From: Eledone cirrhosa
Lineage: Eukaryota
Length of the DNA stretch: 64,000 nt
Direction of reading: 5' to 3'
NCBI GenBank assembly: GCA_964016885.1
Contig: OZ024743.1
Coordinates: 28,024,001-28,088,000 of the forward strand
Made by a program: the position numbers and the translations under genes
In this document: piece after piece, positions 286-64,000 of the stretch
Position numbering within the stretch: position 1 is the stretch's first letter
How the letters are laid out: each line of letters opens with the position of its first letter
Notes under the pieces: generated by a model
The model's input: only the letters and a program-made list of their open reading frames with translations
What the model was told of the DNA's origin: nothing
The model's database searches: none

Positions 286-3200
286 TTACAGACACATACT
301 CAGAGAAGGCCCATTCATTCGGGCCATACTTGTTTCTCTCACCCATCTTTCAACAAAATGCTGGGAAGAGAGCACTTCCCTCTCTACCCTGATTTTCCTT
401 TTCAGATGAAATTTGAAAAAGTTAATCAGGGCATCACCGAAGAGGTAAGTGCTCGTCTTCAGCCCTTTCAAACGTGTCCACCATACTATCTCTTTCGCCA
501 TGGCCACCAGACAGATAAAAACTGCCTGCCCTTCCCGGCTAAAGGAAGAGGGCGGGGCAATCCTCACGATGGACTCAGCTGATAGCTGGATCCGTCCTAC
601 ACGTGACAGCAGGTGTTCGACATAAACCCACAAGTCAGCAATGCTCGGACACTGGACGAGTGCGTGCAGGTCGGTTTCGTCGCCCTGCGCGCATCTCGGA
701 CATGCCCGGCTGACGGCACCTCCATGCCTGTAAAGTTTATCCCGAACTGGCAAATCACCCCGGTAGCACTGCCAGGCCAGGAATTTCTGGAAGTTGTCCA
801 TAGGCCCCGGCCCGAAAGTCCTTCCGAAGAGATTGGCTAGTTGATTTTCGTCGACGCCTAGAGTTTCTCCAAGTACGTCGTCGCTCTTCCCCTCCACTAA
901 TCCCCTATAGAACACCAAGGTGGAGTTTCCACCGATCACATTGCCCGATTGGTCGAGGGCTGTGAGCGCCTGAAAACATTCCAGTCTCCAAGCGCTCCCT
1001 CTCGGTCTTCGCTTGACCCAGGACTGCAGCTCCGTCAAGGAGACGAGCTGGGGAAAAACGTGTCTAGCAAACGGCGACCACACCTGATCACCGTCGAGGA
1101 AGAGGTGGAGATGTCGTAGCCTGAGCGCGTGTCTGCGCATCATCAGCCACGGCATGCCCAGCCCTCCACGTAGCGGGTGTTGACAGCAGATGGACCGCCT
1201 GACCATCGGAGCGCGTCCCTTCCACAAAAAGCGAAAGAGCAAACGTTCCAGCGCAGTCAGGTGGGGCTTAGGACAAGGTACGACGGTCAGGCGGTAGTAG
1301 ATGACGGACGCGATGTACGCGTTAGCCACCTCCGCTCGACCTTTCAGGGATAGCTTCCTCTCGGCCCATTTCTGGGTGAGAGAAGCCACCCTGCTCGTCA
1401 CCTCGTCCCAGTTTTTGTCCGTCTGGAGGTCCGGACCGAACCAGACCCCTAGCAATTTAACCGGTCCGTCCGTCCAGCGCCCGACGACGCTGTTGGACGG
1501 CATGGACCTGCCTCTCCAGGTGCCGAGCTGCAGGCCCACTGACTTTTCCTGGTTGATCATTGCTCCTGTCACCGCTTCGTATTGTCTTAGTGTAGTGCCG
1601 ATCGCCTCGATGTGTTTGGCGTTCAACACCACTACGGTGACATCGTCCGCATATGCTGACACGGATCTTCCGCATCCTAGTTCGCGCAGGACCCCCCTCA
1701 ACGTCTCCAGTTTGTGCAGTAATGGCTCGAGAATCAATACGTGCAAGAGGGAAGATAGGGGACATCCTTGGCGGACCGAGCGCATGATGTTGCACGGTTC
1801 CGAAAGGTGACCGTTCACTCTCACCACAGAGCAGATGTCGCTGTGCATGGCAGCGATCCAGCCTCTGAAGACGGGCCCAAAGCCAGCCGCCCTCAGGACT
1901 GCCGCTAGGTAACGATGGTCGACCCTATCGAAGGCTTTCGACTGATCTTAATTTATCAAAGATCCACCTGTGCCAGGTTCCCTAGCTACCCTCTCTACGA
2001 TGTATCGCATGAGGTGGAGGTTGTCGTGGATGGATCTGTCGGGAATGGCGCATGTCTGCGCCTCTCCCACCAGACCACCAACGACAAGCGCCAACCTCTT
2101 TGCTAGCACCTTGGCCAAAAATCTTGAACTCTGTGTTTAGCAGGGTTATGGGCCTAAAATTATCTATGTTATCCCACTTGTTCGGATCCTTTCTCAGCAG
2201 CGCCACCGCTCCTCGGCTCACAGAGCTGAGAATTCTCCCGTTCTGTTGCCAGTTGCAGTAGACGTCCGCAAAGAGGCCTCCGAACAAGTCTGGAATTTGT
2301 ACGTAAAGTTCATAGGGCAGACCATCCAAACCAGGCGATTTACCCCTTGTGCAGCCAGTCATTCCCTCCCGTACTTCAGCGGCTGTTATCGGCTTTTCGC
2401 AACACTCCGCCTCAGTGGCCGAGAGCCGCGGCAGTCCGTCGAGGTAGACACTAAAGTCCATCCCTCGATTAGGCCCGCCACTGCCCCCGAACAGTTGAGC
2501 GAAGTGTCGCTGAAAAGCTTCACACATTTGCCCGGGATCGAGTAGCATGCGTCCGTCGTGGTCCACCAAAGACCGGATCGTGGCTTTGTTGCCACGACGC
2601 GCCTCCGCCACTCGGGCCCATTGAACGGCTTTCGTCCTCTCGTGTCTGAGAGCACGCACCCTAGCTCTCACAACGCAGCCTTCGTGCTTTGCATTGAAGA
2701 ATTGGTGAAGGGCCAATTTCGCCGCAAGTACGTCGGTCGCGATGCCTTTGCAATGCAACTCGTCTAATTTTCTAACTAATTCTCCCTCTGCTCTATTTTT
2801 CTCTATTGCTAAAGCCTTACTAAACCTAATGGACTCTATTCTAATTGCTCTTTTCAGAGCAAACCACCACTTGTTGTTGACGATGGCCCCCGTCAACGCC
2901 CGCTTAACTAGTTCGCTAATCCGGTCTCTGTAGGCCTTGCGCGCTGGTAAGGACGCGTTTAGCTTCCAGTAGCCGGGTCCTCGTCTATGAAGCCTATCTA
3001 AGTCAAGCACACAGATCACGAATTTGTGGTCCGTGTCGCTGACTATCTTGAATTGTGGACAGCCTATGCTAGATCTATCTATTTCTCTACAAAATACTCT
3101 ATCTAGATATGATCTGGATGACCCTATGCGATTTGTCCAAGTCCACATAGGTACATTCGGGAAATCAAATCGGTACCTGTCAGACAGTTCAAAACGCCTG

Positions 3201-3644
3201 AGCAGGTTGGTGACACTCTTGCACCCTCCTCCCTTATTCACTAATCCCACACAATCCCAGCGTGCATCCAAGATCCCGTTCCAGTCGCCCACTAACACTA
3301 AAGAGCGGGACGTTCCAAGAAAGATCTCCAGACGCCGGAAGAAATCAGGCCGCCCTGCTCCTGTCGGGGCATAGACGGCCACTAACCTGAAAGCTTGCCC
3401 GTCTCCGCTGGTCACGTCCAACACCACCAACTTACCTTCTGGGTCCAGGAAGATGGCCCGTATGGCAAGATCCAAACCTCTCCGAAAAAGCACAGCAACT
3501 CCTCCCCCTGATCCCGGAGATTCTGGTCTCACTGATGGCCACTACATCTATGTTTAGTGACCTGAGGTCGTTGAGCAGGTGGCCCTGCTTCCATGACGAC
3601 CCCAAGCCACGCGCATTTATGCTGCCTATTCTGAGTGAGGTCAT
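286..3644 (-). pseudogene. Tx1/L1 ORF2: APE endonuclease + reverse transcriptase + C-terminal Cys/His domain, split by frameshifts
   Basis: MTSLRIGSINARGL..ISET, VAVYAP, LVGDWN, SYLDR, SDTDH (APE); KSPGLDGLP, FRPITLLN, VRQGCPLS, YADD, LLGV (RT); CPRC..ETDLHALVQC. Spread over ORFs 3432-3644, 1982-3532 and 286-1848. Confidence 0.92.
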
Positions 3645-5863: not shown

Positions 5864-7495
5864 AGAGAGGTATCTTCCAGGGAGATAGTCTGTCCCCTCT
5901 GTTGTTTGTCCTTGCCCTGATGCCCCCGACCATTATACTGCGAAAAGTGAGAGCAGGATACAAGTTGGGAAAGGGAGAGCTTACCGTCAGTCACCTCCTC
6001 TTCATGGACGATCTTAAGCTCTTCGGGAAGAGTGAGAAGGAGTTGGATGTACTTGTTGACACTGTCCGTATTTTCAGCAATGATATATGTATGGAATTTG
6101 GTATTAGTAAGTGTGGAGTCCTTCTGATGAAGAGGGGTAAATTGAGCAGAAGCAACGGAATGAAGGTACCAACAGGTGAGATGATAAAGGAAATTGACAC
6201 TGAAGAAGGATACAAGTATTTGGGTGTTCTGGAGGCTGATGACATCAAGAACAAAAAAATGAAGGAATTGATAAGAACTGAATACATTCGGAGAGTAAGG
6301 AGCGTATTAAAGTCACATCTGAACAGTAGAAATGCCATAAGTGCAGTAAATTCCCGAGCTGTGTCTATTATTAGGTACAGTGCGGGAACTCTGAGATGGA
6401 ATGTTGCTGAACAAAAAGAAATGGATAGGAAGACTAGGAAGCTATTGACTATCTACAACATGTTCCACAAGAGGAGTGATGTCGATAGATTCTACTTAAG
6501 GATATCTGAAGGTGGAAGAGGTCTTATAAGCATAGAGGACTGTGTTCAGATGGAGAAAAACAACCTACACAAATACGTGACTGATAATAAGGAGCCAATG
6601 CTCAGAACTGTACTGAAGGAGAGGACAATAGACCAGGGGATGTCCAAGGAGGAAATAACAACAAGGAGAAAGAGCAGCCTTCAGGAAAAATCCCTTCATA
6701 GTACCTTCTTTGAGAAAACTGAATTCAGAGATCCACAGACATGGAACTGGTTGAAAAGAGGAGACCTTAAAAAGGCTACAGAAGGAATGTTAATGGCTGC
6801 GCAAAGCAGGCCCTCAAAACGAAGTGGTTGAAACACCATATTTACAAGGAGGAGGCTAGCCCACTGTGCAGGATCTGTGGAGAGAGAGAGGAGACTGTGG
6901 ATCACATTGTATCCGAATGTAAACACCTAGCCCAGAGTCACTATAAGGGCTGGAGACATGATATGATGGGCAGGGTGATCCACTGGCACCTATGCAAAGT
7001 AAACAATTTACCACATTCTGAGAAGTGGTATGAGCATAAGCCAGAGTCGGTGATAGAAAACGATCAAGTGAAAATGCTGTGTGATTTTAGGATACCGACG
7101 GACAAGAAACTGGTGGTTTTGGACAAAGAAAAAAGATCGTGCCTGATTGTGGATGTGGCCTGCCCATTCGACACGAGAGTGCAAGAGATGGAGATGGAGA
7201 AAATTAACCGATACCAGGAATTAAAGTGGGAGGTAAAAAGGGTTTGGAACTGCCATGAAGTCAAAGTGATCCCGATTGTCATAGGCGCACTAGGGACTAT
7301 CTGAAAAGGTTTCCAGGGATGGTTAAAGAAAATTGGCCCCTTCACGCTTTTTGGAACGCTTCAAAAGGCATGCTTGCTGGGAACAGCAAGAACCCTCCGA
7401 TACGTCTTGAATATCTGAGGCTGCAGGTATTGGCTTGATATTCATTTCAACAAACTTTCCAGTTAACTAACATCAATGACTGAGACTCAAAGAAC
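5864..7495 (+). mobile_element. 5'-truncated R4/Dong-like RLE non-LTR retrotransposon
   Basis: RGIFQGDSLSPLLF, SHLLFMDDLKLF, YKYLG (RT); CRICGEREETVDHIVSEC knuckle; IVDVACPFD..IPIVIGALG..LQKACLLGTAR (RLE), ending TGA at ~7418. Flanked by (TAA)n at 5846-5863 and 7496-7516. Confidence 0.9.
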
Positions 7496-8502: not shown

Positions 8503-11500
8503 TAGCTAAATTACTTGTCCTTTGGACGGTTCAAGTAGCTTTCGATGTAGCTCATTAAACTAAACGAAGTAAATTTGAATACATAGAAGAAAAACGTACT
8601 TTATGCAAACATGAAAACCTTTGGCACTATTCTAGCGAAATAATTAATATGTGAGCTCGGTGTCATCCGTTATACACCAGAAAAACCAGTCTAGGTATAC
8701 ATTTTTTTGACAACAGTAAAAGCGCATCATGAAATAGAGAAATGAATAATAGACACTATTATGTACATAGGTTGGAATAACAATACAGATTGGACATAAC
8801 AGAGGGGAACTGATGGATGAGCACATCGTTATAAAAAGAGGTGGGTATTGGGTGGGAGCACTCATTGTCTTTTGGATTATTGAAGAGCAGATTTATACAC
8901 AACATTTTCGGGTTTCCCGTCAGGAGCATAAATAAATTGGTTGTCAGGATTACCTACTCGAGAACAGCCAACGTAAAACTGACCATGTGAAAAGCAATGG
9001 CTTCGAAGATCCAGAGCAATAACTTTAAGAGATTGGCCTTGAGATTTGTTTATGGTCATTGCAAAACTAAGCTTGAGTTGGAATTGCAACCTTTTCATGG
9101 GAAATGGACAATCAGAAGGGTTAAAAGGAATTTTGGGAATAAAAACAGATTCATTTCGCCCGGGTCCTGTGATTATTTCTACCTCAATTACAAGGTTCAT
9201 CAGTTGCTTTACCACCAGTCTTGTTCCATTACAAAGAAAGGGGGGTAAATTACGTAGCAGGATAGCAGGAGCTCTAACTTTTAGATACAACTCGTGAAGA
9301 GGTAGTCCTGGAGGATCCTGAGAGTTAAGAAACTCTGTTGGGAAGTTGGGCACTTGATCAAAGTCTGTAACAGTGTCAACTGACTTGTAACAGCGTTGAA
9401 TAGCGTGCAACTGACCAACTATTTCGTGATTGATCATCTTAACAGCAGCATTTGTGGGTGCAAGAATAGCCCTCACACAAAGCCAATCAGGATTCATGAA
9501 TTCAGTTGAAAAATTTGGATAAACTGAAGAACATAAGTCATCGGGCGTTGAGACTGAGTGGCCAATGCTAGAAGTGTCAATGTATCCATTGTCGTCGGAC
9601 TCAAGTTGACCATCACCGATTTGGAGGAATTGAGTGGAAAATGGCGTAGACGGACGACCAGTTTGTAATAGCGATTGCATATTAATTGTTAGTTTTTGTA
9701 CCTCAACAAACTGCCAAAAAAGAGGACTTTTTAAGCAGGCGTCCACTTCATCAGCAGGTGATCCCTTTGGCACCACGGGAAGTGTCTGTCTGAAGTCACC
9801 TGCGAGACGAAGAATGGCTCCTCCAAATATATTGTCATTAGATCTAAGATCTTTCATTGTGGCACCTAGTGCCTGAAGAGAGCCTTTATGGGACATGTTT
9901 GCCTCATCCCACACAATTAGTTTACAGCATTTCCACAGAGCAGCTTCGTCAGAACTATGTGAGATATTGCAGATGGGATTCTCTTCAGTGGCAGCTTGAA
10001 GGTCGAGTGTGCTGTGCGCCCACCTTCTGAAAGAGTCGCAGCTATACCGGAAGAGGCAACAGCAAGTGCAATGTCGCCATTCTGCCTTACCTTAGCAAGA
10101 GTAAGATTAAGCAGAAATGTTTTACCGGTCCCTCCAGGTGCATCTATGAAGATAATCCCGCCAGTAGTGCTGTATACCTTGCTTAGAACGGATTTGTATG
10201 CAGATTCTTGATCTGGATTAAGGAGAGGCTACGTATTGTCGAAGCTTGGTTTTGTCGGAGCTGGTTTCTCTAAGGAGGAGTCGATTAAAAGTTTGCTCTT
10301 GGTTTCTATCAGGAGAATGGAGGCAGTATGCCTCCAAACATTGGCCTCCAATTGCCACAACTAAGTCCTCCAAGATAATTAGACCAGCATTATACATAGA
10401 GGGGGTAAAAGCAGTGGTGGAATTTTCGGTAGCTTGATAGGTTTGAAGCCATATATCGTGGCACATGTGGTCCCTGTATTTATTCCACAACAAAGGCGAG
10501 TTAACACAGTTGCAGAAAACCAGCATAATGGAAAATAGATGCCGAAGCTTTGACGGAGATCGACGGAGAGACGCTTCCTCAAGTGTACTCTCATAATGGT
10601 TTTCCGTATCGATGAGTCTCCGTTTAAAGCAGGCATCCTTGAATGCCTTGCATAATTGACCGTCCACTGTGCGAAGGGTTGCAAAGGATGTTGGTCCACG
10701 TACCACGTGAAGCAGCAGTCGAAGATGGAAGCATTGGAAGTTCAAAGGATGAACAGTATAGACGCGTCCTATTGTGTCACTTTAAAAAATGGCAGGATCT
10801 GAATCAATATGTCGGCCCTGTTTTCTTCTTTGCCATAAATAAGTTGAGTGGTTCCAAGAATAATAATGAGGAACATCAACACACAGAAGAGTTTTTGCGT
10901 ATGAGTCAACCGTACAGAGTTCGAAAAATGCAGTCAAAGTTGTCCTACGTTGGGCAAGAACCTGTTGACGTAAGTTTTCTTCAGTGAAGTAAACTCTCTG
11001 CTTGTCCTCTAAGTGAACACCGAGATGTTGAGCAGGGGGGAATCGCTCGTGTATAGGGAAACCAAACGTTCTCCAAACGGCCTCATTGGTTCAGATATAA
11101 CGCCCTATTAGAAACAGTTCTACCTCATCTGTTTGTGCAGCTGCTGTTCCTGTTTGTGTCACTTGAAAGACGGCTCTATCGGATCCCTTATTGACGTATT
11201 CGCAAACGTAATGTATAGATTTAACTTAGTTACAATATTCAACGTTAATATGCTCATTAAATGTCTTGCAGAGCATCTTGTTATGTGGAACAACCCATTG
11301 ATTGTCAATTGTAAATTCTCGGTTAGATACATGTTTGATTGTTGCTGTGAAACCGCCATGTCCAGTAGCTCTTCTGCGATATAATGGGTAACCGTCGTTA
11401 CCTGTGATCGTCTCAGCCAAAAGCTTTAGTGGATATTTATTAGTGCATTTTCCGTTTGCCATGCATGAAGACGTAGAAATAAAGTGCCGACATGGCCCAT

Positions 11501-12872
11501 GAACCATATTTTTTCGAATGATTTCGTACAACTGGGGGTCTTCATTGGGATTTAGAAATTCTGCACTTATGACTGTGTCCACGTCAGAAGGTCGAAGTTT
11601 GCTTTGTAGCCAGAGTAAGATGTGGGCGTGAGGTAGACCACGTATTTGCCATTCAACAGTATACATAAAACATTTGATCGGCCCGAAAATTTCACCACAT
11701 TTAAACAAATCAATCATTTTACGAATTTTAAGATGAAAAACGCGAGCAGTGATGTTTCAGAAGCTATCGCAGTAGTCCGATAAGCACAATCGGAAGCCTG
11801 GCGACGTATGCGTTGTTCAGGTGTCTCCGCAGCTCCTGAGGCAGCAGTCGCGGCAGCATTGCGTTTTTCTTCGAGTTGCACGCTGTTCAGGTGTCTCCGC
11901 AGCTCTTGAGGCAGCAGTCGCGGCAGCATTCAGCGCTAACCGAATAGTACGTTCCTCTGTAGACTTATTTGATCGTGAAGCAGCAGTGGTTTGTGCAGTT
12001 TTTGCCATACGGGCCGCAAGTTTTTCTACTGAGTATCGATGCGATGAATGCGAAGTATTGAGTCTTGCGTTGTAGGCAGCTAATGTCGATAACCTAGTTG
12101 TCCTCTGCTCCTCAGTTTCAATAGCTCGACGTTGCTTTTCCTTAACCACACCAGTCGACAATCTGCTGAGGCAACTTCTTTTTTTTCCACGAGGCATCGA
12201 AACAAAATGTGTAAAGTAGACACGATATAACACCATCGAATGTAAAAATAAAGATTAATTGTAAAATGTATTTGAAGTACATGTAGCGGTAGAACGTTCG
12301 AAATGTACAGGGTATGTAAGTTAATAACTAAATTATGTGTCAGAAACGTAGTCTAATCAATACGAAAAAATAGAATAATTCTAAGTCTTTGATGTATAAA
12401 CCATCCTTTAGATAAATTTAAGCATAATATTGTAAAAGTTATGACATCACTTAATGTATGAACATCAAGCTTGAAACGATAAATTATACAATGTCAAATC
12501 TATAACTTAACTTAGTAATCTGTTAGAAATTGCTGGTTGTGAAATATACAAAATGATATTGTTAGTCTCTTTGTTTCAAGTACAAAGAGTAAGTTAAAAT
12601 CCGAATGAGCCGAATTACGAAAGATAACTCTTGTCTTACTTAATCACTAAAATTCACACAAATAACCGAAAGTTTTTTAATGTCTCCAAAGGCCCCAATA
12701 TCGATTTTTGAAAGCCTTTGTAGATCATGTACAGGTTTTGTGCAAGGAGAAGCTCTATAAAAAATTTCAAAGAAATCGCATGAATGGTTTAGAATATATG
12801 AGCCCTCATTAAAAATTGTCCACACACACATACACATACATACAGAAAACTACAGATTTATATATATACAGA
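8502..12872 (-). mobile_element. Helitron, internally deleted, inserted in (TA)n
   Basis: 5' TC start (TCTGTATATATATAAA) at ~12872; 3' degenerate hairpin (CCGTCCAAAGGACAAG) followed by CTAG at 8502-8505; A|T target; RepHel coding remnants inside. Confidence 0.9.
8877..12197 (-). pseudogene. Helitron Rep/Pif1-type helicase (RepHel), disrupted
   Basis: N-terminal ETPEQR repeats; YTVEWQIRGLPHAHILLWL (HUH) and YPLYRRR; APGGTGKT at ~10120-10145; WDEA, GDFRQTLPV, CNGTRL, FAMTINKSQGQS, FSHGQFYVGCSRV. Confidence 0.92.
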
Positions 12873-24684: not shown

Positions 24685-26650
24685 GAAAATGATTCCTTTA
24701 GTAGGAATATTTTTGAATGAACATATTTTCCTTACTTATTCGTATTTGTTCTGTTGTATTGTCAGTGCAAACGTATGTTAAGGTTTATTTAGTTCGGGTT
24801 TTTATTTTCTAAAGTAGAAGGTGTTATGTGTGTGTGTGTATGTGTCTGTTTGGATGGTTAGCATGTTATGGTGTTGACATAATGTATATTAAACCATATT
24901 TAATGCTGGTCTATATTTTTGAATAAACATATTTTCCTTATTTATTCGTATTTGTTCTGTTGTATTGTTAGCGCAAAGGTAAAATGGAATTTGGGTGTCT
25001 TATTACTTGCGCATATGTCTAGATGTGCGCTTAGTGGTATCTGTCTCGTGGTTGGATCTCGTAATTGTTGGCGATGAACTGTCATTCTGTTTCTGAGTGT
25101 GAGTTTAGTTTGTCCTATATAATTTTCATTGCATCCTTCACATTTAATGGCATAAATTAGATTTTTTGATGAGCAAGTGAAGTGATTTTTTACAGTAAAA
25201 TGTTGTCCTGATTTAAATGTATACGTGTTGCCTTCAATGAGGTGAGTGCAGGTTCCACAATTAGAACGACCACATTTTTTGACACTTGGTTGTGGGTTTG
25301 TGGTAGGTAATTTGGCATTGGTGAGTAATGTTTTCAGTAATTTCGGTTGTCTTTTGCTTTTGATTCTTGGGTTTTGTTTTAGTAGTGGGATGTTCTTGTG
25401 AATAGTGTTGTAAGCTTCCGCATTTCTTGGGTTGTGTGTTGAGATATATGATAGAATATTGAACGTACCTTGAATTTGTTTCTGTTTTCGTAATTCATCA
25501 ATGCCTATTGCTTTAGCCCTTTCTATTCCATTATTTATTAGTAATAGTGGGTACTCTCTTTCGAGTAGAATTTCCTTTAATTCTTGAAGTCTTTTATTTC
25601 GCGTTTCATAATTGGAGACAATTGTGCAAATTCTTCTTGCTAGGTTAAAAGGAATGTTCGTCTTCGAGTGCTTTGGATTGTTGGAGGTGAATAGCAAGTA
25701 TTGTTTGGAATCTGTTGGTTTGTAGTGTATGTCAATTTCAATATTTGTGTCTTTTTTAAAGATTAAGATGTCCAGAAATGGGAGTTGATCTTGGCTGTAT
25801 TCCATTGTGAATTGGATGTGGTTATTGATGCCGTTTATTAAGTTTTTGAAATCCTTCAGTTGGTCGAGTGTGTGGGACCAAAGAATGAGACAATCATCCA
25901 AGTAGCGTTTCCAATTCTCTGATAAATATTTGTGGAAGTTCAATCCGTATTTTGATTTGGACTGTTCATATATCTGGACTTCTAAGTATGCCATGACTAA
26001 GTTGGCATAAGTTGGAGCGGCTTTTGTACCCATCGCAGTCCCCGATATTTGCTTGTAAGTACTGCCATCGAAATCAAAAAGTTGTTCTGTAAGATGAATT
26101 TTAATCCCTCCGTGATGAAGCTTTTTTCTATTCTGTCAGATATCTCTATTGGGATATTTCTCTAGCCATAATCCTATTGCTTCTAGTCCGTATTGGTGTG
26201 CGATCGTTGTGTAGAGATTCACTACATCGAAAGACACAATAATAGTGTCGTTGTTGACATGTTTGGGGAGGTGGTTTAAGGGGTCCAGATCGTCTCTTAC
26301 AAGGCTTGGTATGTGTTTGAGAATTGGTTTTAGTAGTATGTCTATAAAGTTGCTCAGTCTGTGTGTTTCACATTGTGGGCCCGCTACAATTGGTCTTAAT
26401 TTAAGGTCTGTGGGGTATTGTGTGTTTACGCAGGCTGAGGTGGATTGTTCACAGGCATCGTTAATTATTTTACACTTGTGGATCTTCGGAAGTCCGTAAA
26501 GGTTGCTGGTTTTGTATTCAAAATGTGTTAAATAATCGCGTTCCTTTTTAGTTAGGTCTTCCTGGTATCGATAATTCAGTGTCATAATATCGATAGTATC
26601 GATAATTCAGTATCGATAATTCTGGTCATTGTTTTTGATTGCTGGTAGTT
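23635..26650 (-). mobile_element. Penelope-like element (RT + GIY-YIG), 5'-truncated, with 3' pLTR
   Basis: LYGLPKIHK, LRPIV, VSFDVVNLYT, MGTKAAPTYANL, RYLDDC, LPFLDI, NLIYAIKC..YIGQT in ORFs 26136-26585 and 24942-26033; HHR motif at 23775-23810. Confidence 0.9.
23775..23810 (-). ncRNA. Minimal type I hammerhead ribozyme, U3-A8 core variant
   Basis: CTT-TTGAAAA-GCAG/CTGC-GAA-ACCGGT-A-AAG. Confidence 0.7.
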
Positions 26651-27332: not shown

Positions 27333-27396
<64 letters not shown>

Positions 27397-27400
<4 letters not shown>

Positions 27401-27911
27401 CGTTTCTGAATTTGTTTAGCAAGATTCTTTATCTGAAAACGTGTGTTGAAACCGATATTGTTATACTTTGGGAGGGTCATGTTGCCAATAAGAAACACAC
27501 GCACCAGTTGCTTTCACTTCAATGTATTATAATAAATTTATAAATTTAGGAATTTATAAATTTCCGGTTGGTTGGTTGGGTCCACAACCAGATGGTTGTT
27601 TATATATTGCCAAAGTTCTTTCGTCACACATTCTGTGACCTCTTCAGTGACACAAAAACAAGATGGCGTAGGACAGAACAAAGGAGAGTCACAAAAAACA
27701 AAGAAAAGAATCACCAGTCACTGAAGAGGTCACAGAATGTGTGACGAAAGAACTTTGACAATATATAAACAACCATCTGGTTGTGGAATCAACCAACCAA
27801 CCAGAAATTTATAAATTCCTAAATTTATAAATTTATTATAATAAATTGAAGTGAAAGCAACTGGTGCGTGTGTTTCTTATTGGCAACATGACCCACCCAA
27901 AGTATAACAAT
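27397..27911. mobile_element. Fold-back pLTR element, family A, with two divergent hammerheads
   Basis: ~195-bp inverted arms (27457-27651 and 27717-27911) plus a 60-nt one-sided tail; flanked by (TA)n. Confidence 0.85.
27717..27759 (+). ncRNA. Minimal type I hammerhead ribozyme (mirror copy at 27609-27651, minus strand)
   Basis: GTCA-CTGAAGA-G-GTCACA/TGTGAC-GAA-AGAACT-T-TGAC. Confidence 0.7.
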
Positions 27912-27977
27912 ATATATATATATATATATATATAAATATATATATACATATACATATATATATACATACATTCATAC

Positions 27978-28055
<78 letters not shown>

Positions 28056-29358: not shown

Positions 29359-32300
29359 CAGTGGACGCCAACCTTTCTAAAACCGAGGAACCCTCTAAAT
29401 ATTTTGAATTCTTCACGGAACCTATACAATACGAAACTTTTCAAAAAAAAATAATAAAGTATTTATTTATTTTAGTTTTTCATGCGTGTGTATGTAATCG
29501 AACACAATTAACTAGTGGCTTTTCTGCTGCTGCGCCTCATCAGTGAGTTTAGAAAATCGAGGTTCAACACTAGTTAATGCCAGTATCATACACTCGTCAA
29601 TTGCTAACAGTTTATTCCTCTTCTTTGTGCGAAAACCCTTTTTCGCACAAATAGCTAGATGGGAATAAAGTCAAATATTTCAATGCAAGTTGGCTGATTT
29701 TATTAAACTCCCCAATCAAGAATAATTTGATCCATAGTTCTTTCTTTCTGCTTTCGAATATCACTTTCAGGTCTTCGTTTGAATTCAAATCCATCAACTG
29801 ATGTAAGCATTGTGCAGGTAGTAAATTTTTACAATTTCCAGCGTCACTTTCTGACACTAACTGCTCGATCTCGGTGAACGGGTTTTTTATCCATAAATTT
29901 CCGCTAACAATATCTTTTTCCATCAATGCCAAAATAATCTGAAAAAATTGTGGAGAGCACATTTAAATGAGAAAGAATAATCTTCTTTAGATTGCTGGAG
30001 TCAAAATCTTCTCTCTTTTTAAGCTCTATTTCAAGGTTTGAAGGTAATGAGTAATTGTCCGATTCAATTCTTTTCATAAAGATGTTTAATTTTGATTGAA
30101 AATATGTAATAAAATTGATTGAAGTAAAAATATCTGCATTGTTACTCTGAAGACACTTATTTAGTTTGTTCAGTTCACCAAATATGTCTACTAAATAAGC
30201 GAGTTGCACATTCCATTCATTGGTTTCTAATACACTTGCTCTTTCATCATTCTGTTTTTTTAGAAAAACTATTATTTCTTCTCTCAGTTCAAAAACTCTC
30301 TTCATAGCATCCCCAAAAGACAGCCAACGCACATCATTGTTCAATAACAATCTATTATAATTACTTCCAGAAGATTCACAAATAGATTCAAACATTCTAG
30401 AATTTTTTGCTCTTGCATGGATCAAATTGATAATTTTGACAATGTCTTTCAGCTGGTCATTTAATATTTGAGCATCTCTGTCTTTGAATTTTTCTTAACA
30501 CAAAACCTCTCGATGAATCATACAATGATTTGAAATACAATTTGGGGTCTATTCTTTAATTTTTGCAATCAAACCAGAATTTTTACCAGTCATTGCAGCT
30601 GCTCCATCTGTTGTTATTGAAGTCAACTTGTTCCAAGAGACACCATTTTTTAAAAAATACTCTTCAATTTTATTGAATATATCTTGACCTTTAGTTGTGA
30701 TGTCTAATACCAGACAAAACAAATACTCTTCTACTAATTCTTTTTTATCAAGGTCTACAAACCGTACATAGCAAATTAATTGAGCCTTGTTATTAATATC
30801 CGTAGTTTCGTCCACTTGCAGACCAAAACATGTGCTTTTCTTTAGTGCAGTTAGTATCTGATTTTCTATATCAGAAGAAATATCAATTATCCTTCTTTTT
30901 ACGGTATTTGCTGACAATGGTAACTGGCTTAATTTTCCTTTGCCCTTAATACTGCATCTTTCAAAAAGATTCTCTATAGCAATTTTTATACTTGGCAGAA
31001 TTAACTGTTCTCCTAATGTAAATGGTTTCTTGTTTTTACCAATCAAATGTGAAATCTAAAAAGATGTTCTTGTTAAAGCTTTATTTCTATCTGACTTTTT
31101 ACGAAACAAGTCATACATATTAGCTTGTGATTTTTTAATGTTGTTTTTCAGCGAAGTAAAGTGACTTGTTTTTATCATTGACTTGTTTTTATCATTGGTG
31201 TGGTTAGTATCAAGGTGTCTTTTAAGTTTTGCAGGATTTAAACAGCTATTTGATAGAACTTTTGAACATAGCAAACACATAGGCTGATCTGGTGTATCTT
31301 TTTTAGTGTCAGCTTTTTGAAATCCATATCTAACATAATCATCACACCACTGTCTAACCTTACTGCTGGTATCTAACTTCAGCTTCTTTGCAGTAGACAT
31401 CATATCAATGTTATTTATCTACAGTTAAACTTTTTAATATGACATTAATAAACAAGAGAAATTAACAGTTTTTTTAATTACAAAAAGTACTTAAATTAAC
31501 TTTAATTTTAGATATTTGGAAAAACTTAACTAGTTAAAAAGAAATTTAATTTTTAAAAATTGAAATTTCTCCATTTTAGGATGGCAAACATATTATTTAA
31601 ATATTAAATATTAGAATATTAAAATATTAGGGGTTACTGAAAAAGGTGCAAATTTATAAACAACTAGAAGAAATCTTTTTCAGAGTCCAGCACTTCCTGC
31701 ATATACTACTTTAGGGTCGTATTAAATATTATTGGTAATGTAAATATATTTAAATATCCGCCATACTAAAAAGTGCAAAAAATGCAAATCAGCTGATCGT
31801 GTAGAAGATGTGACGATGGTATTGGAAATTAATTCAGATATCTTCTATCTATTTTGACTCAAAGTTAGATATAATATAAGAAGGCTTTAGGCTGCGTTAA
31901 ACATATATTAGATTGGAACAAATAAAGTTTAGTCAAATGCTTGTGGACATATATATTTATTGTATGAAGTAATTTCTCAATTGTGAATGCAGATGTCATC
32001 AAATGAATACATAATTGTGTGGCAAAGTTTATAGTGTATGCATGGAATGCAACATTACCTTTGTTAGTAGTCGAAACTTTACAGACGTTATATTTTCTGT
32101 ACAAAGTACAACAGAATGTAACGTGTTCTTATTTAGAATTGTCTGTGGAACTGGATGCATGTTGAAAACGACTAGTAAGCGAGTTCACTATGTGAGGAAA
32201 CTTTAGGCGACTTTAAAGCTTTTGTGAGGACAGCAGATTAAAACGTGTTCTCTATTGAAAACATTCTACTGAACTTACGTTGTGAGAACAGCGAACTGAC

Positions 32301-33445: not shown

Positions 33446-33770
33446 ATATAAGATCAAAAGATGGTTAAAGGAGTTCCATGTATTTTATTATGCGCATTTC
33501 AAAAACAAACATCATCATGCAATAATATTTGTGTTTTCATCAGATAAAACAGGAGAACATGATATGATGTTCTCCTGTTTTATCTGATGAAAACACAAAT
33601 ATTATTGCATGATGATGTTTGTTTTTGAAATGCGCATAATAAAATACATGGAACTCCTTTAACCATCTTTTGATCTTATATTATGCATACTCCAGTCCTA
33701 CAAACTGTAGAGTGCTTCTTATCCGATATCTGCATTGCTTTATTGTACTACAATAAAACTCACCTCCTAC
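33443..33770. mobile_element. Near-perfect 242-bp palindrome (118-bp arms, 6-nt spacer) plus ~85-nt tail; pLTR-type
   Basis: Arms 33443-33560 and 33567-33684; TA-flanked. Confidence 0.9.
33577..33645 (+). ncRNA. Minimal type I hammerhead ribozyme (mirror copy in left arm)
   Basis: TTTTAT-CTGATGA-AAACACAAATA/TGTTTGTTTTT-GAA-ATGCGCAT (palindrome)-A-ATAAAA. Confidence 0.75.
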
Positions 33771-33790
33771 ATATATATATATATATATAT

Positions 33791-34368
33791 ATTTCGTTTC
33801 TGAATTTGTTTAGCAAGATTCTCTATCTGGAAACGTGTGTTGAAACCGATATTGTTATACTTGCTTTTATTCCAATTTATTATAAATTAAAAAAAATTTT
33901 AAAATAATTTTTTCAAAAGAATTTATAAATTTCCGGTTGGTTTGTTGGTTCCACAACCGGACGGTTGTTTATATATTGTCAAAGTTCTTTCGTCACACAT
34001 TCTGTGACCTCTTCAGTGACTGTGGATTCTTTTCTTCGTTTTGTGCCTCTCCTTATTCTGTCCTACGCCATCTTGTTTTTGTGTGTTTTGTGTGTGTTGA
34101 CAACACGAACAAAAACTGGATGGCGTAGGACAGAACAAAGGAGAGTCACAAAACAAAGAAAAGAATCCCCAGTCACTGAAGAGATCACAGGATGTGTGAC
34201 GAAAGAACTTTGACAATATATGAACAACCGTCCGGTTGTGGAATCAACCAACCAACCGGAAATTTATAAATTCTTTTGAAAAAAAAAAAGAAATTTAATT
34301 TATAATAAATTGGAGTGAAAGCACTGGTGCGTGTATTTCTTATTGGCAACATGACCCTCCCACAGTAT

Positions 34369-34374
<6 letters not shown>
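33791..34374. mobile_element. Second family A fold-back element with two divergent hammerheads
   Basis: Same tail and arms as 27397-27911 but a different central junction; HHR motifs at 33978-34020 (-) and 34172-34214 (+). Confidence 0.85.
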
Positions 34375-34716
<342 letters not shown>

Positions 34717-35153
34717 GCAAAAGTTCTATTTAAAATTGTTGGGATACAACAAGTAAATATTTTATAACTGATATAAAGCACTCGACAAGTTTTTGGAGTA
34801 GATATACGATATTAATAAATGGAAACTATATTTATAAAACCATATTTATTTCATTATACATATTTCAGGGATACCAAATTAAAATATGGTATGCCTTCAT
34901 CAGACAAAATACAATATATAAACAGTTTTATAAATAAATAATTTTGACGTACCCTATTAAATGCAACCATTATTTCCAAAAATAATGGTTGCATTTAATA
35001 GGGTACGTCAAAATTATTTATTTATAAAACTGTTTATATATTGTATTTTGTCTGATGAAGGCATACCATATTTTAATTTGGTATCCCTGAAATATGTATA
35101 ATGAAATAAATATGGTTTTATAAATATAGTTTCCATTTATTAATATCGTATAT
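34717..35153. mobile_element. Family B fold-back element (~174-bp arms, 4-nt spacer, ~85-nt tail)
   Basis: Arms 34802-34975 and 34980-35153. Confidence 0.9.
35044..35108 (+). ncRNA. Minimal type I hammerhead ribozyme (mirror copy in left arm)
   Basis: TATTTTGT-CTGATGA-AGGCATACCA/TGGTATCCCT-GAA-ATATGTAT-A-ATGAAATA. Confidence 0.7.
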
Positions 35154-35334
35154 ATATATATATGTTTGTGTGTATATGTATATATATATAAATGTATATA
35201 TATATATATATAAATGTATATATATAATAAATATTTGCTCTACGGTTCTTATATATTTGATATATATTTATCCTTATCGAGCTCTCTTTGGATTTTAGTC
35301 TTCAAATTTATTATTATTACTATATATATATATA

Positions 35335-39478: not shown

Positions 39479-39502
39479 TACGTACATATATATATATATA
39501 TA

Positions 39503-40012
39503 TAAACGGAAAAAATGAAACGAAATTTCATTTCCCACTTTTAGTACGGCTGTTACTTAAATATAAGTATGTACACGTACATACATATATGTATACAGAC
39601 GTACTAAGAGTGGGAAATGAAATTTCGTTTCATTTTTTCCGTTTATCGTTTTCGGTGCACCCGGCCGTTTAACCCACTCGATATGCAAATTGGGCTACTC
39701 AGCCGTTAATATGCTTAAGGTAAGTATAAACGTTAAACAATCTGGCAGGAAGGTATACGTTGCTGACGATAGCTAATAAGCTTGAAACTAGTACAGCGTT
39801 CCTTTGTCAGTGTTGAACAAACGAGCAACGATGGTTGCTAGACACTACGGCTTAATACGGGATGTTTGTTTACAAACACACCGAGCATTACAATAAATGT
39901 TCGGTGAATCCATACGTACATATATATATGTGTGCATGTATGTATATATATATATATATATACATACTACTGTACGTCTGTATACATATATGTATGTACG
40001 TGTACATACTTA
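39503..40012 (+). mobile_element. ORF-less hammerhead-bearing circularly permuted unit (family E) with inverted end
   Basis: Inverted repeat 39503-39547 / 39601-39646; homologous to 42045-42670. Confidence 0.8.
39757..39799 (+). ncRNA. Minimal type I hammerhead ribozyme
   Basis: ACGTTG-CTGACGA-T-AGCT AATA AGCT-T-GAA-ACTAGT (palindrome)-A-CAGCGT. Confidence 0.85.
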
Positions 40013-40476
40013 TATATATATGTATATATATACATGTGTGTGTGTGTATGTGTGTGTGTGTGTATACATCACCGATATATGCATCCACATATACAGAGAA
40101 ACACACGTCAGAAAGTATTTCCTTATCATAGCTTTCATGTCATGCGTTATGCGTTGAAAGCAGTGAAATAATTTCACATCAACAGAGCATCCTTATATAA
40201 ATGTTTATGGGTAACTACATGACGACTACACACAGCTGGATATTTTCTAATTGATTTGATATTAATAAGAAACGGATTAGGGAACAGTTCTTGCTTCCAG
40301 GCACAGTTTTGATTCGTTGCATGCAAGCGACCTCTGGTTGAATAAGACATAAGTTGTTGAATCTGATTTAGGCCACACGTCGCAAATAAACTAGCATAGT
40401 AATTATATGTAAATACACACATAGAAATACGTATAAAGACTCAATTATAAAGAAACCAACAAACACAAACACACAG

Positions 40477-40550
<74 letters not shown>

Positions 40551-40803
40551 AATACATACGAACAGATAGAGTTGTGCATCTTTACGTTCGGTATTAACAT
40601 TTAGACATAATTTGATTCGGTTTATACTTACAATTTTTCTTTCAATCTTTCTCTCTCCAGTTTTTGTAGACTCACAGACACGCACACACACATATAGATA
40701 GATTGATAGAGATTGATAGATAGATAGATAGATAGATAGACAGGCAGACAGACAGACAGACAGACAGATAGATAGATAGACAGATAGATAGATACATAGA
40801 TAG

Positions 40804-40850
<47 letters not shown>

Positions 40851-40854
40851 TGTA

Positions 40855-41190
40855 AAGGTGCATGGCTTAGTGGTTAGAGCATTGGGCTTGCAAACGAAGT
40901 GTTGTGAGTTCGATTCTCGGACCGGGAGATGTGTTGTGTCTTTGAGCAAGGCACTTTATTTCACGTTGCTTCAGTTTACTCAGCTGTAGAAATGAGTTGC
41001 GACGTCACTGGTGTCAAGCTGTATCCGCCATTTCCCTTGCCTTGGAAAACAACTGGGCGTGGAGAGAGGAGACTCGTATGCATGGGCGACTGTTGGTCTT
41101 CCACAAACAATCTTGCTCGGACTTGTGTCTCGGAGGGAAACTTTCTAGGTGCAAATCCATGGTCATTCGGGACCGAAGGGTGTCTTTACC

Positions 41191-41194
<4 letters not shown>
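40855..41194 (+). mobile_element. tRNA-derived SINE with CORE/V-like central domain
   Basis: A box TGGCTTAGTGG and B box GAGTTCGATTC; GTGTCTTTGAGCAAGGCACTT domain. Confidence 0.8.
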
Positions 41195-41242
<48 letters not shown>

Positions 41243-41603
41243 CAGTAGCACAAAAACAGAATTAAGCATAAAAGAGATGTATATGTAAACATATACTGTA
41301 TGACTATATACAATAAATATATGCGTGCCTTGCTATGAAAGAAAAATATTTTTTCGTAATGAAAAAATATTTTTCTCTTTTGCGCTGTGAATATGTCACA
41401 AATATCCTAGTAGCCGCCGCGGATGCCAAACAGCTGACTCAAGCTTCATTTGTCAGTAACATTCACTCAACTGGTATTGAGATGTAAATTGACAAGAGCC
41501 TATATAGACTTTGTGTGATGAACATGTGCTGGAAATGACCATCTATAGTGCGAACTTAGCTGTTTATAATTAACTAGCGGTAGTACCATGATAGCGCTAA
41601 GTA

Positions 41604-41808
41604 GAATGGCCGGCTTTGCCACATTCAAATAAGAGTAAGAATGAAGGGTTCATTCTACTGATATGGCTTTAAAAATGAGGCTTGTTTGCATAATTGCAAA
41701 CGAATCGAATGTTATTATTGATATTCGAAAAACTCAGATTACATTTATTGTATTCAGCCATGTAGAGCGAAAATTTTTTTTTATTTGAATGTGGCAAAGC
41801 CGGCCATT
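41604..41808. repeat. 28-bp perfect inverted repeat pair
   Basis: AATGGCCGGCTTTGCCACATTCAAATAA / TTATTTGAATGTGGCAAAGCCGGCCATT. Confidence 0.75.
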
Positions 41809-41851
41809 TATCGCTCGTATATATCGTTCTTAGAACGAAAAACAAATGTTT

Positions 41852-41889
<38 letters not shown>

Positions 41890-41959
41890 CATACACATAC
41901 ATATGTGTATCTGTGTGATAGTCTTGAACAAATGAGAATCTCAATGCACCCTAAATGTA

Positions 41960-42044
<85 letters not shown>

Positions 42045-42046
<2 letters not shown>

Positions 42047-42668
42047 AATATAAGTATGTATACGTACATACATATATGTGTATAGACGCACAGTAGTATG
42101 TATATATATACATACATGCACACACATATATATATATATGTACGCATGGGTTTACCGAACATTTATTGTAATGTTCGGTTTGTTTGTAAACAAACAGCCC
42201 GATTTACGCCGTACAGTGCTCGGCAACCATCGTCGCCCTTTTGTTCAACACTGACACAGGAACGATGTACTAGTTTCAAGCTTATTAGCTATCGTCAGCA
42301 TCGTATACCTTTCTGTCAGATGATTGAACGCCTGAAAGTATATACTTTCCTTATGCATATTAACGGCTGAGCAGCCTAATTTGCATATCGAATGAGTTAG
42401 TCGGCCGGGCATACCGAAAACGATAAATGGAAAAGAATGAAACGATATTTCATTTCTCACTCTTAGTACGGCTGATGCCTAAATATAAACAAACCGAACA
42501 TTATAATAAATGTTCGGTAAACCCATGCGTACATATATATGTGTGCATGTATGTATATATATACATACTACTGTGCGTCTGTACACATATATGTATGTAC
42601 GTATACATACTTATATTCAGGTATCAGCTGTACTAAGAGTGAGAAATGAAATTTCGTTTCATTCTTTT

Positions 42669-42670
<2 letters not shown>
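42045..42670 (-). mobile_element. Family E unit, copy 2, with inverted end
   Basis: Minus-strand body 42045-42487 and plus-strand partial copy 42488-42670; TA-flanked. Confidence 0.8.
42262..42304 (-). ncRNA. Minimal type I hammerhead ribozyme
   Basis: ACGATG-CTGACGA-T-AGCT AATA AGCT-T-GAA-ACTAGT-A-CATCGT. Confidence 0.85.
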
Positions 42671-42708
<38 letters not shown>

Positions 42709-59751: not shown

Positions 59752-59836
59752 TCTTTATTAGCCACAGGGGCACAAAAGAAGGGGACAAATACAAAGGGGT
59801 AAGTTTACATACAATAAAAACGTGTAAATATATATA

Positions 59837-62798
<2,962 letters not shown>

Positions 62799-63286: not shown

Positions 63287-63321
<35 letters not shown>

Positions 63322-63324
<3 letters not shown>

Positions 63325-64000
63325 GATATTAAACAAATGGAAACTATATTTATAAAACCATATTTATTTCGTTATATATATTTCCGGGATATCACATTAA
63401 AAATATGGTATGCCTTCCTCAGACAAAATACAATATATAAGCCGTTTTATAAATAATTTTGACATACCCTAGAATAATGCAACTTCCATTTAAAAAGTTG
63501 ATTTGGTAGTGAAACTGTTGAGGACAGTTATAGAGAAAGAAAGACGACACCTGGCTTGACCTTGTGGAAGGGAACTGGGAAGGTCATTGAGTGGTTTAAT
63601 GAAATTAAATATAACAATAATAATAAATTTATTCAACTAGATATTGCTAACTACTATTCATCCATTACCCCTAATCTACTAAATAAGGCACTAAATTACG
63701 CATTCAAACATACAGACCTAACTACCAATGAAATGCACATTATATTATCGGCTAGGAAAACATGGATAGAATTTAATAACCAACTATGGACTAGGGCAGA
63801 TAGAGATAATAATTTCGACATTACTATGGGATCATCAGACTCAGCTCAGGTAACGGACCTTATGGGCCTATTTATAATTAATTCGCTGCATAGGAAAATA
63901 CCCGGTGTTACCGGAGGTTTATATAGAGATGACATGCTTTTACTTATTGAAAATAATAACTCTGAACTAAATAGAAAAAGAAAACAAATTATACAATTTT
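63322..64000 (+). mobile_element. PLE: inverted family B pLTR (63322-63485) followed by an RT-coding region running off the window
   Basis: Open frame from ~63502: VIEWFN..FIQLDIANYYSSIT..FDITMGSSDSAQVTDLMGLFI..GLYRDDML (absent from the ORF track because it has no stop in the window). Confidence 0.85.

Follow-up and report, generated by a model that had tools for sequence, protein, structure and literature searches.

A protein-free hammerhead retrozyme family of Eledone cirrhosa, likely pasted by Penelope-type machinery

Analysis of a 64-kb window of the Eledone cirrhosa genome (the whole stretch of DNA under study, 64,000 nt) and of related copies across the assembly indicates that the repeat family E is a protein-free hammerhead retrozyme that is likely pasted by Penelope machinery, probably from a circular monomer RNA. 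We assign this overall reading a probability of about 0.6. At the sequence level, family E fits the definition of a non-LTR retrozyme: as an earlier reading of the window made from its letters (the sequence-only reading) had proposed, it is a tandem, ORF-less, hammerhead-bearing family with a unit of about 425 nt, which agrees with the description of such elements in PMC7229834. The most fitting description of the element is a non-autonomous passenger of Penelope machinery.

Two insertions of a closed, ribozyme-bearing unit

Family E occurs in the window as two independent insertions, 39502-40018 and 42045-42676, which lie in opposite orientations and are 85% identical to each other. The sequence-only reading had treated the region as a single 3.2-kb element; the two insertions instead belong to different subfamilies and are separated by about 2 kb of unrelated repeats. 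Both are built from a noncoding unit of 420 to 430 nt that bears a type I hammerhead, and their features are as follows.

39502..39604, minus strand: short inverted arm of insertion 1, unit positions 372 to 46, 98% identical to the reference unit
39600..40018, plus strand: long arm of insertion 1, about 0.97 unit, subfamily A
39614..39634, plus strand: tail hairpin immediately 5' of fixed end 2, with a T6 run after the hairpin
39682..39693, plus strand: U6-like motif TATGCAAATTGG, a candidate promoter element that host U6 genes carry at -77 to -79
39724..39731, plus strand: TATA-like box, 42 nt past the motif
39742..39810, plus strand: hammerhead of type I whose helix I is extended; core at 39757-39799, cut predicted 3' of A39793 (GUA)
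39881..39904, plus strand: hairpin of 9 bp in which subfamily C has three two-sided changes
39912..40012, plus strand: long TA/TG-rich imperfect hairpin that terminates at fixed end 1
42045..42488, minus strand: long arm of insertion 2, 1.03 units, subfamily B, 95% identical to a subfamily B unit
42262..42304, minus strand: core of the insertion 2 hammerhead, cut predicted 3' of A42268
42338..42387, minus strand: U6-like motif (42376-42387) and TATA-like box (42338-42345) of insertion 2
42484..42676, plus strand: short inverted arm of insertion 2, unit positions 282 to 47

The long arm of insertion 1 stops at fixed end 1 (CATACTTATA) and is followed by (TA)n; its short arm spans the unit join, bears a tail of about 59 nt, and stops at fixed end 2, again followed by (TA)n. 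The two arms are joined through a common CGTAC (39600-39604). Insertion 2 is arranged in the same way, with a long arm that spans the join and stops at fixed end 1 and a short arm that spans the join, bears the tail, and stops at fixed end 2, both running into (TA)n. TA repeats adjoin all four outer ends, and no target-site duplication could be distinguished from the TA runs at the window insertions. Closure of the unit on itself, as previously proposed, was confirmed: the inverted piece 39502-39604 runs from the end of the unit into its start, both arms of insertion 2 cross the join, and genomic tandem arrays, with periods of 410 to 453 nt, do the same. The unit also lacks an ORF as claimed, the longest ATG ORF in a tripled unit being 53 to 54 codons. 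The "circular permutation" described for these copies is present as a pattern and can be explained by copying that begins at two fixed internal sites on a repeating template.

The hammerhead core is intact in both long arms, with a GUA cut site. In insertion 1 it reads ACGTTG / CTGACGA / AGCT-AATA-AGCT / GAAA CTAG TA / CAGCGT, where stem II (AGCT-AATA-AGCT) has a T.T pair at its base; stem I of insertion 2 is ACGATG/CATCGT. The two-sided change in stem I that the sequence-only reading singled out is real (U-G to A-U), but it represents a single evolutionary event between the two window copies; a third subfamily has G-U at the same pair. Covariation nevertheless holds on shuffle controls when more copies are compared. 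Among 19 aligned family members, 98.9% of cells pair, and both sides have changed in 4 of 29 pairs (one in stem I and three in the downstream hairpin); against a sister family, described below, the count is 6 of 15 hammerhead pairs, split evenly between stems I and II. Every change observed in the hammerhead stems of the two families preserves pairing, and their hammerhead covariation score was matched by none of 500 shuffles, controls that ignore relatedness and apply to few events in copies selected by an intact core. Stem III is one pair capped by CUAG, and the resulting palindrome ACUAGU is invariant in all 10 distinct rows of the alignment of the two families. An Rfam scan of the 64 kb returned no match at the gathering score, and at a loose E-value no hammerhead family was among 113 weak matches, which comprised TA-rich miRNA look-alikes and a weak tRNA match.

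Exact matches to a 33-nt pattern of the ribozyme core numbered 10,670 in the 3.0-Gb assembly, a count that excludes the youngest subfamily, which differs in loop 2; the reversed pattern, a control for chance, had no genomic match. Many copies form head-to-tail arrays of up to about 20 units, with periods of 405 to 453 nt in 42 ribozyme-to-ribozyme stretches, some from overlapping loci, and the unit has the low GC content of non-LTR retrozymes. Subfamilies A, B, and C exist together with intermediates. Their differences were reproduced in four sequencing-run contig sets, as was the loose TA end at end 2; these sets are not informative on transcript starts or circles, and low-depth sets from two other organisms were excluded from the evidence. 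A pattern for related ribozymes yielded no coding partner and instead a noncoding sister family, colinear with family E, 466 to 470 nt in length, and about 62% identical to it. The tail hairpin is retained there with a paired change. Sister copies (L275-L278) have two arms, their cut triplets vary among GUA, GUC, and GUU, and one sister-family arm stops exactly at the cut site and is followed by (TA)n.

Insertion ends and their Penelope footprint

Ends were scored for the first 100 core matches on contig 1, taken in positional order, which gave 77 loci and 128 arms after one arm that ran off its locus was dropped. Arm 3' ends fell at end 1 in 55 cases, at end 2 in 48, and elsewhere in 25; the two fixed ends, which lie about 59 nt apart, accordingly account for 103 of 128 arms where 8% were expected, and a TA run directly follows 70 of these 103. 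Two arms stood back to back at 34 junctions in the 77 loci. Both ends were fixed in 22 of them, and 20 of the 22 had one of each fixed end (p = 6e-5); the young loci (n = 13) gave one of each in all 10 two-armed loci with both ends seen, and both window insertions do likewise. In the 77-locus sample the 5' junctions were scattered. Arm polarity follows the ribozyme strand.

Inverted, 5'-truncated arms at AT-rich or microsatellite targets are marks of Penelope insertion, and family E has them. In vitro, the tail of a Penelope-like element (PLE) is the gap between two internal reverse transcriptase (RT) start sites, and insertion proceeds with both target strands cut and extended; the tail is called unique to PLEs (PMC11167929). 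In light of the match between this process and the two fixed ends with back-to-back arms, a Penelope-type enzyme likely copies the unit, and from the insertion anatomy we consider it very probable that Penelope machinery mobilizes it. The sequence-only reading had set retrozymes and Penelope elements apart. In the 77 loci no arm continues into a coding PLE, which would have refuted it, but the insertions themselves carry the Penelope footprint. A coding Penelope-like family in this genome, the family with a 775-aa RT-GIY-YIG frame described below, shows the footprint too: 37 of its 38 alignments, in which seven loci are represented twice, break off in front of (TA)n at one of two points separated by 69 nt.

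Further inverted repeat families with hammerhead-like motifs lie in the window at 27333-28039, 33768-34447, 34649-35177, 63295-63483, and 33543-33630, and they often flank family E copies across a common TA run, which suggests that TA runs are common landing sites. Between the two insertions, 40858-41195 is a probable tRNA-derived SINE with a weak Rfam tRNA match at 40863-40920, where ARAGORN called no tRNA in the candidate SINE, and 41605-41808 is a MITE-like element with perfect 28-bp terminal inverted repeats. ORF fragments at 286-3541, 5866-7304, 8877-12254, and 29904-31418 resemble, as judged by eye, two non-LTR retrotransposons, a Helitron helicase, and a hAT-type transposase.

Promoter, cleavage, and template

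Directly 5' of the ribozyme, the unit carries the U6-like motif and the TATA-like box. Host U6 loci of three kinds have TATGC(A/T)AAT(T/G)AG at -77 to -79, followed by a TATA box at position -31, and the motif was absent upstream of three host U2 loci. The motif plus TATA was found in 0 of 5,000 shuffles and the motif alone in 7, for a pattern that was written after both the unit and U6 had been seen; within the 64-kb window, the pair occurs only in the two family E copies. Spacing between motif and TATA is 42 in the unit versus 46 to 48 in host U6 genes. The youngest subfamily has a base changed inside the motif, and the sister family, at 62% identity, retains the motif. Likeness to U6 promoters over the whole region was rejected as not significant (45, 94, and 226 of 500 shuffles), the similarity being confined to the short motif. 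The first run of four or more T residues comes 300 to 352 nt past the predicted start, beside end 2; scarcity of T4 runs in the predicted transcript, a possible sign of Pol III, was not significant (p 0.14 to 0.44). At L106, L113, L150, and L182, several arms start just upstream of the U6-like motif (unit positions about 76 to 80). Newt satellite 2 has an snRNA-type promoter. Taken together, the position and rarity of the motif lean slightly toward a functional U6-type promoter in the unit, and if Pol III were the polymerase, few long multimers would be expected, a point in favor of a circle.

Folded as a circle, the monomer reaches -146 kcal/mol with 70% of bases paired (z = -8.0 against 40 shuffles; z = -6.0 without the TA hairpin). 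By energy calculation, closing stem III within a monomer costs 5.4 kcal/mol, and pairing ACUAGU with itself yields -4.8. The axolotl ribozyme HHR_Amex1 likewise has a one-pair stem III with a palindromic tetraloop and cleaves better as a dimer (PMC7229834). Stem III is therefore unfavorable in one ribozyme and favorable between two, in agreement with dimer cleavage of the HHR_Amex1 type, and on these energies the predicted ribozyme likely cleaves as a dimer, as the sequence-only reading had supposed. Among Xenopus retrozyme dimers, 8 of 9 failed to cleave in vitro (10.64898/2026.07.22.740005).

Arms longer than one unit made up 63 of the 128. One young arm has about 20.6 units, all of which carry a 2-nt insertion also present on its other arm, and young arrays are mostly clonal and nearly uniform on both arms. 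Array-wide private changes were found in 3 of 13 young loci (L194, L254, and L261); L194 has two that are common to both arms, one of which, in its young background, is limited genome-wide to the 8 units of that locus. Distances within arrays are mostly smaller than those between arrays. On the ribozyme strand, private changes shared across a locus were A>G in 14 cases versus T>C in 3 (p = 0.005), a small count in which three sites come from one locus (merged, 12 versus 3, p = 0.015) and some sites may be lineage markers. They fall mostly in hairpins, above all in the TA/TG-rich hairpin at 39912..40012. Changes in single units were nearly even (A>G 129, T>C 111). The A>G lean of the locus-shared variants fits an edited, probably circular, RNA template. 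In favor of a circle, a pile-up of 5' ends at the cut site was not significant in about 90 of more than 10,000 copies: 13 versus 7 at a control site (p = 0.13), or 18 versus 10 before small indels and internal rearrangements were removed. A 5' end at the cut site was found in 1 of the 128 arms, a sample biased against such arms, and 9 ends fell at the predicted transcript start where 6.4 were expected. A one-base loss at the cut site in 3 copies was not array-wide and was taken as background.

An alternative explanation for these arrays could be that Penelope machinery copies linear multimers that stay uncut after transcription of long tandem source arrays, with a hammerhead that is slow or idle and any circles a by-product. 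In vitro, RNA with a dead ribozyme is inserted as usual, and the main substrate is RNA that has not been cut (PMC11167929). The absence of a pile-up at the cut site, counted above in favor of a circle, is compatible with this explanation as well, and donors could be missing from the haploid assembly. The units at L216, L217, and L265 differ in a nested or patchy manner and are not clonal, the first two speaking for a linear source. A source-like array of mixed units also exists: L213 (G000:C21, about 33.957-33.967 Mb), satellite-like, subtelomeric, and near a contig end, has at least 23 units with recurring mixed variants and is a possible source locus. Such a multimer would, however, require clonal sources of 5 to 20 units that already held the private change, and the assembly contains none for that of L194; the long RNA would have to survive a T6 or T4 run and a ribozyme in every unit; and the stems have been kept by paired changes across families that are 62% alike. 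We consider a linear multimer a possible but doubtful template and, given Penelope machinery, a circular RNA the probable one. Arrays also grow locally, as seen at L213 and by duplication at L143. The ABAB array at L143 (1343-3273) arose when 842 bp were duplicated, the boundary falling within the TA hairpin, and its B units have a stem I mismatch; a dimeric circle was rejected there, since the repeat boundary is at unit positions 343-395 and the cut site is at 193.

The units could also be pLTRs shed from an unseen coding Penelope element, most copies being its 5'-truncated ends. All of the end features are Penelope features, and the genome has thousands of loci, of which the screen covered 77; of 57 Xenopus retrozyme families, 24 are similar to known elements, with PLEs making up 21 of 22 matches (10.64898/2026.07.22.740005). 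Set against this origin, the unit joins seamlessly to itself in ORF-less arrays of up to about 20 units, and no flank abutting an arm in the 77 loci is shared coding sequence. The sequence-only reading had weighed pLTRs of a longer coding PLE against its own proposal, and no arm at these loci enters coding sequence. Flanks common to several loci consist of unit sequence or, past a TA run, of other repeats, the sole PLE protein match sits in an unrelated flank, and an RT plus GIY-YIG ORF between repeats was absent from the window copies and the 77 loci. Family E is not an autonomous PLE, and its derivation from shed pLTRs is highly improbable. Least probable is a satellite or fold-back element spread at the DNA level by recombination or a transposase, with the hammerhead a relic, which local duplication in L143 and L213 and the resemblance of inverted arms to terminal inverted repeats might suggest but which is already largely refuted by the end statistics, the arms stopping at different fixed sites with scattered 5' junctions, and by polarity and A>G-leaning shared changes that follow the ribozyme strand.

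Coding Penelope-like elements are present in the same genome. A damaged copy at 24942-26606 (minus strand) belongs to a very abundant family, which we take to be Neptune-like, with intact relatives at L091-L098; its 4,690-bp unit has an upstream ORF and a 775-aa RT-GIY-YIG frame, of which intact examples exist. The end region of this family shows, by eye, a hammerhead variant with UUGAAAA for CUGANGA and GAAA-CCGG-UA. At 59828-62620 (plus strand), frame-broken RT-like ORFs appear Penelope-like by eye and had no Pfam match; a hammerhead motif at 62374 and a TA run lie 3' of them. The end profile of the family E unit matched neither one active coding family nor the other Penelope fragments of the window, and direct alignment of the unit with the coding Penelope-like family was weak (5 and 55 of 1,000 shuffles). 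The 775-aa family is not demonstrably the partner of the unit.

For a Penelope-pasted retrozyme, these observations suggest the following cycle. A U6-type promoter inside one unit would start RNA just before the ribozyme, and some transcripts would continue into the next unit. The ACUAGU palindromes of two neighboring hammerheads would then pair, and cleavage would free a complete unit that includes the promoter; a host ligase would close this RNA, as in described retrozymes. The footprint at the insertion ends points to a Penelope RT-endonuclease that would nick both strands of a (TA)n target and start one cDNA on each, using two internal sites that are separated by about 59 nt. The products would be the two copies seen in the insertions, variable in length, often longer than one unit, and joined 5' to 5'. 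Older arrays would later be reshuffled by local duplication, as seen in one array.

Family E among known systems

The class to which family E belongs is already known, and its PLE link was argued in a 2026 preprint (10.64898/2026.07.22.740005). Compared with the metazoan non-LTR retrozymes of coral, mussel, and axolotl, the unit is slightly larger than their RNAs of 170 to 400 nt (PMC7229834); the circRNAs of metazoan retrozymes are expressed, whereas family E is known from genomic sequence. Non-LTR retrozymes are described in PMC7761336 as seemingly without promoters and without a motif pointing to a helper element; family E differs from those retrozymes in its U6-like motif and its Penelope two-end footprint. 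Like PLEs, it has a one-end tail, an inverted arm with 5' truncation, partial tandems, targets that are AT-rich or (TA)n, and a hammerhead upstream of two start sites (PMC11167929; 10.1101/2021.04.23.441226). Unlike them, it has no RT-endonuclease ORF, and comparison with one active family and the window fragments gave no clear sequence tie to a coding family. Its tail of about 59 nt compares with 30 to 40 nt in PLEs (PMC11167929; 10.1101/2021.04.23.441226) and 69 nt in the host coding family. Vertebrate retrozymes resemble it in their PLE helper class and in forming monomers, dimers, and multimers (10.64898/2026.07.22.740005). That preprint argues from co-occurrence and pLTR similarity and leaves the mechanism open; the evidence for family E is insertion anatomy, in an invertebrate. 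Schistosome Sm-alpha, transcribed by Pol III, and newt satellite 2, transcribed by Pol II, share with it the order of promoter and then hammerhead in each tandem unit, so that an upstream unit would transcribe the next (PMC6765202); unlike in these two, the motif of family E matches upstream elements of the host's own U6 genes.

In the literature covered, which lay outside subscription papers, supplements, and repeat databases, we found no cephalopod retrozyme and no retrozyme tail footprint, and the main text of an octopus repeat annotation does not use "hammerhead," "ribozyme," or "retrozyme" (PMC13282606). Family E may already stand under a repeat-library name, and cephalopod examples could be present in the supplements of retrozyme papers.

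As presented in PMC7229834, PMC7761336, and 10.64898/2026.07.22.740005, the enzyme that moves animal retrozymes, the priming site, transcription, and the circle as template are open questions. In family E, two priming sites are placed with single-base precision, and a target, a candidate promoter, and a subfamily of very recent origin are also at hand; the genome includes intact Penelope-like ORFs as well, so these steps could be tested by a published in vitro assay (PMC11167929). We tentatively raise a bolder possibility, that family E is a self-sufficient viroid-like RNA replicon, with a captured U6-type promoter, paired cutting, and an A-to-I-edited circle, around which a dimeric Penelope enzyme would roll from both strands of a (TA)n break to lay down up to 20 clonal copies. 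If this were true, the genome would preserve in these arrays a record of reverse transcription by rolling circle and of RNA edits that became fixed in the germ line.
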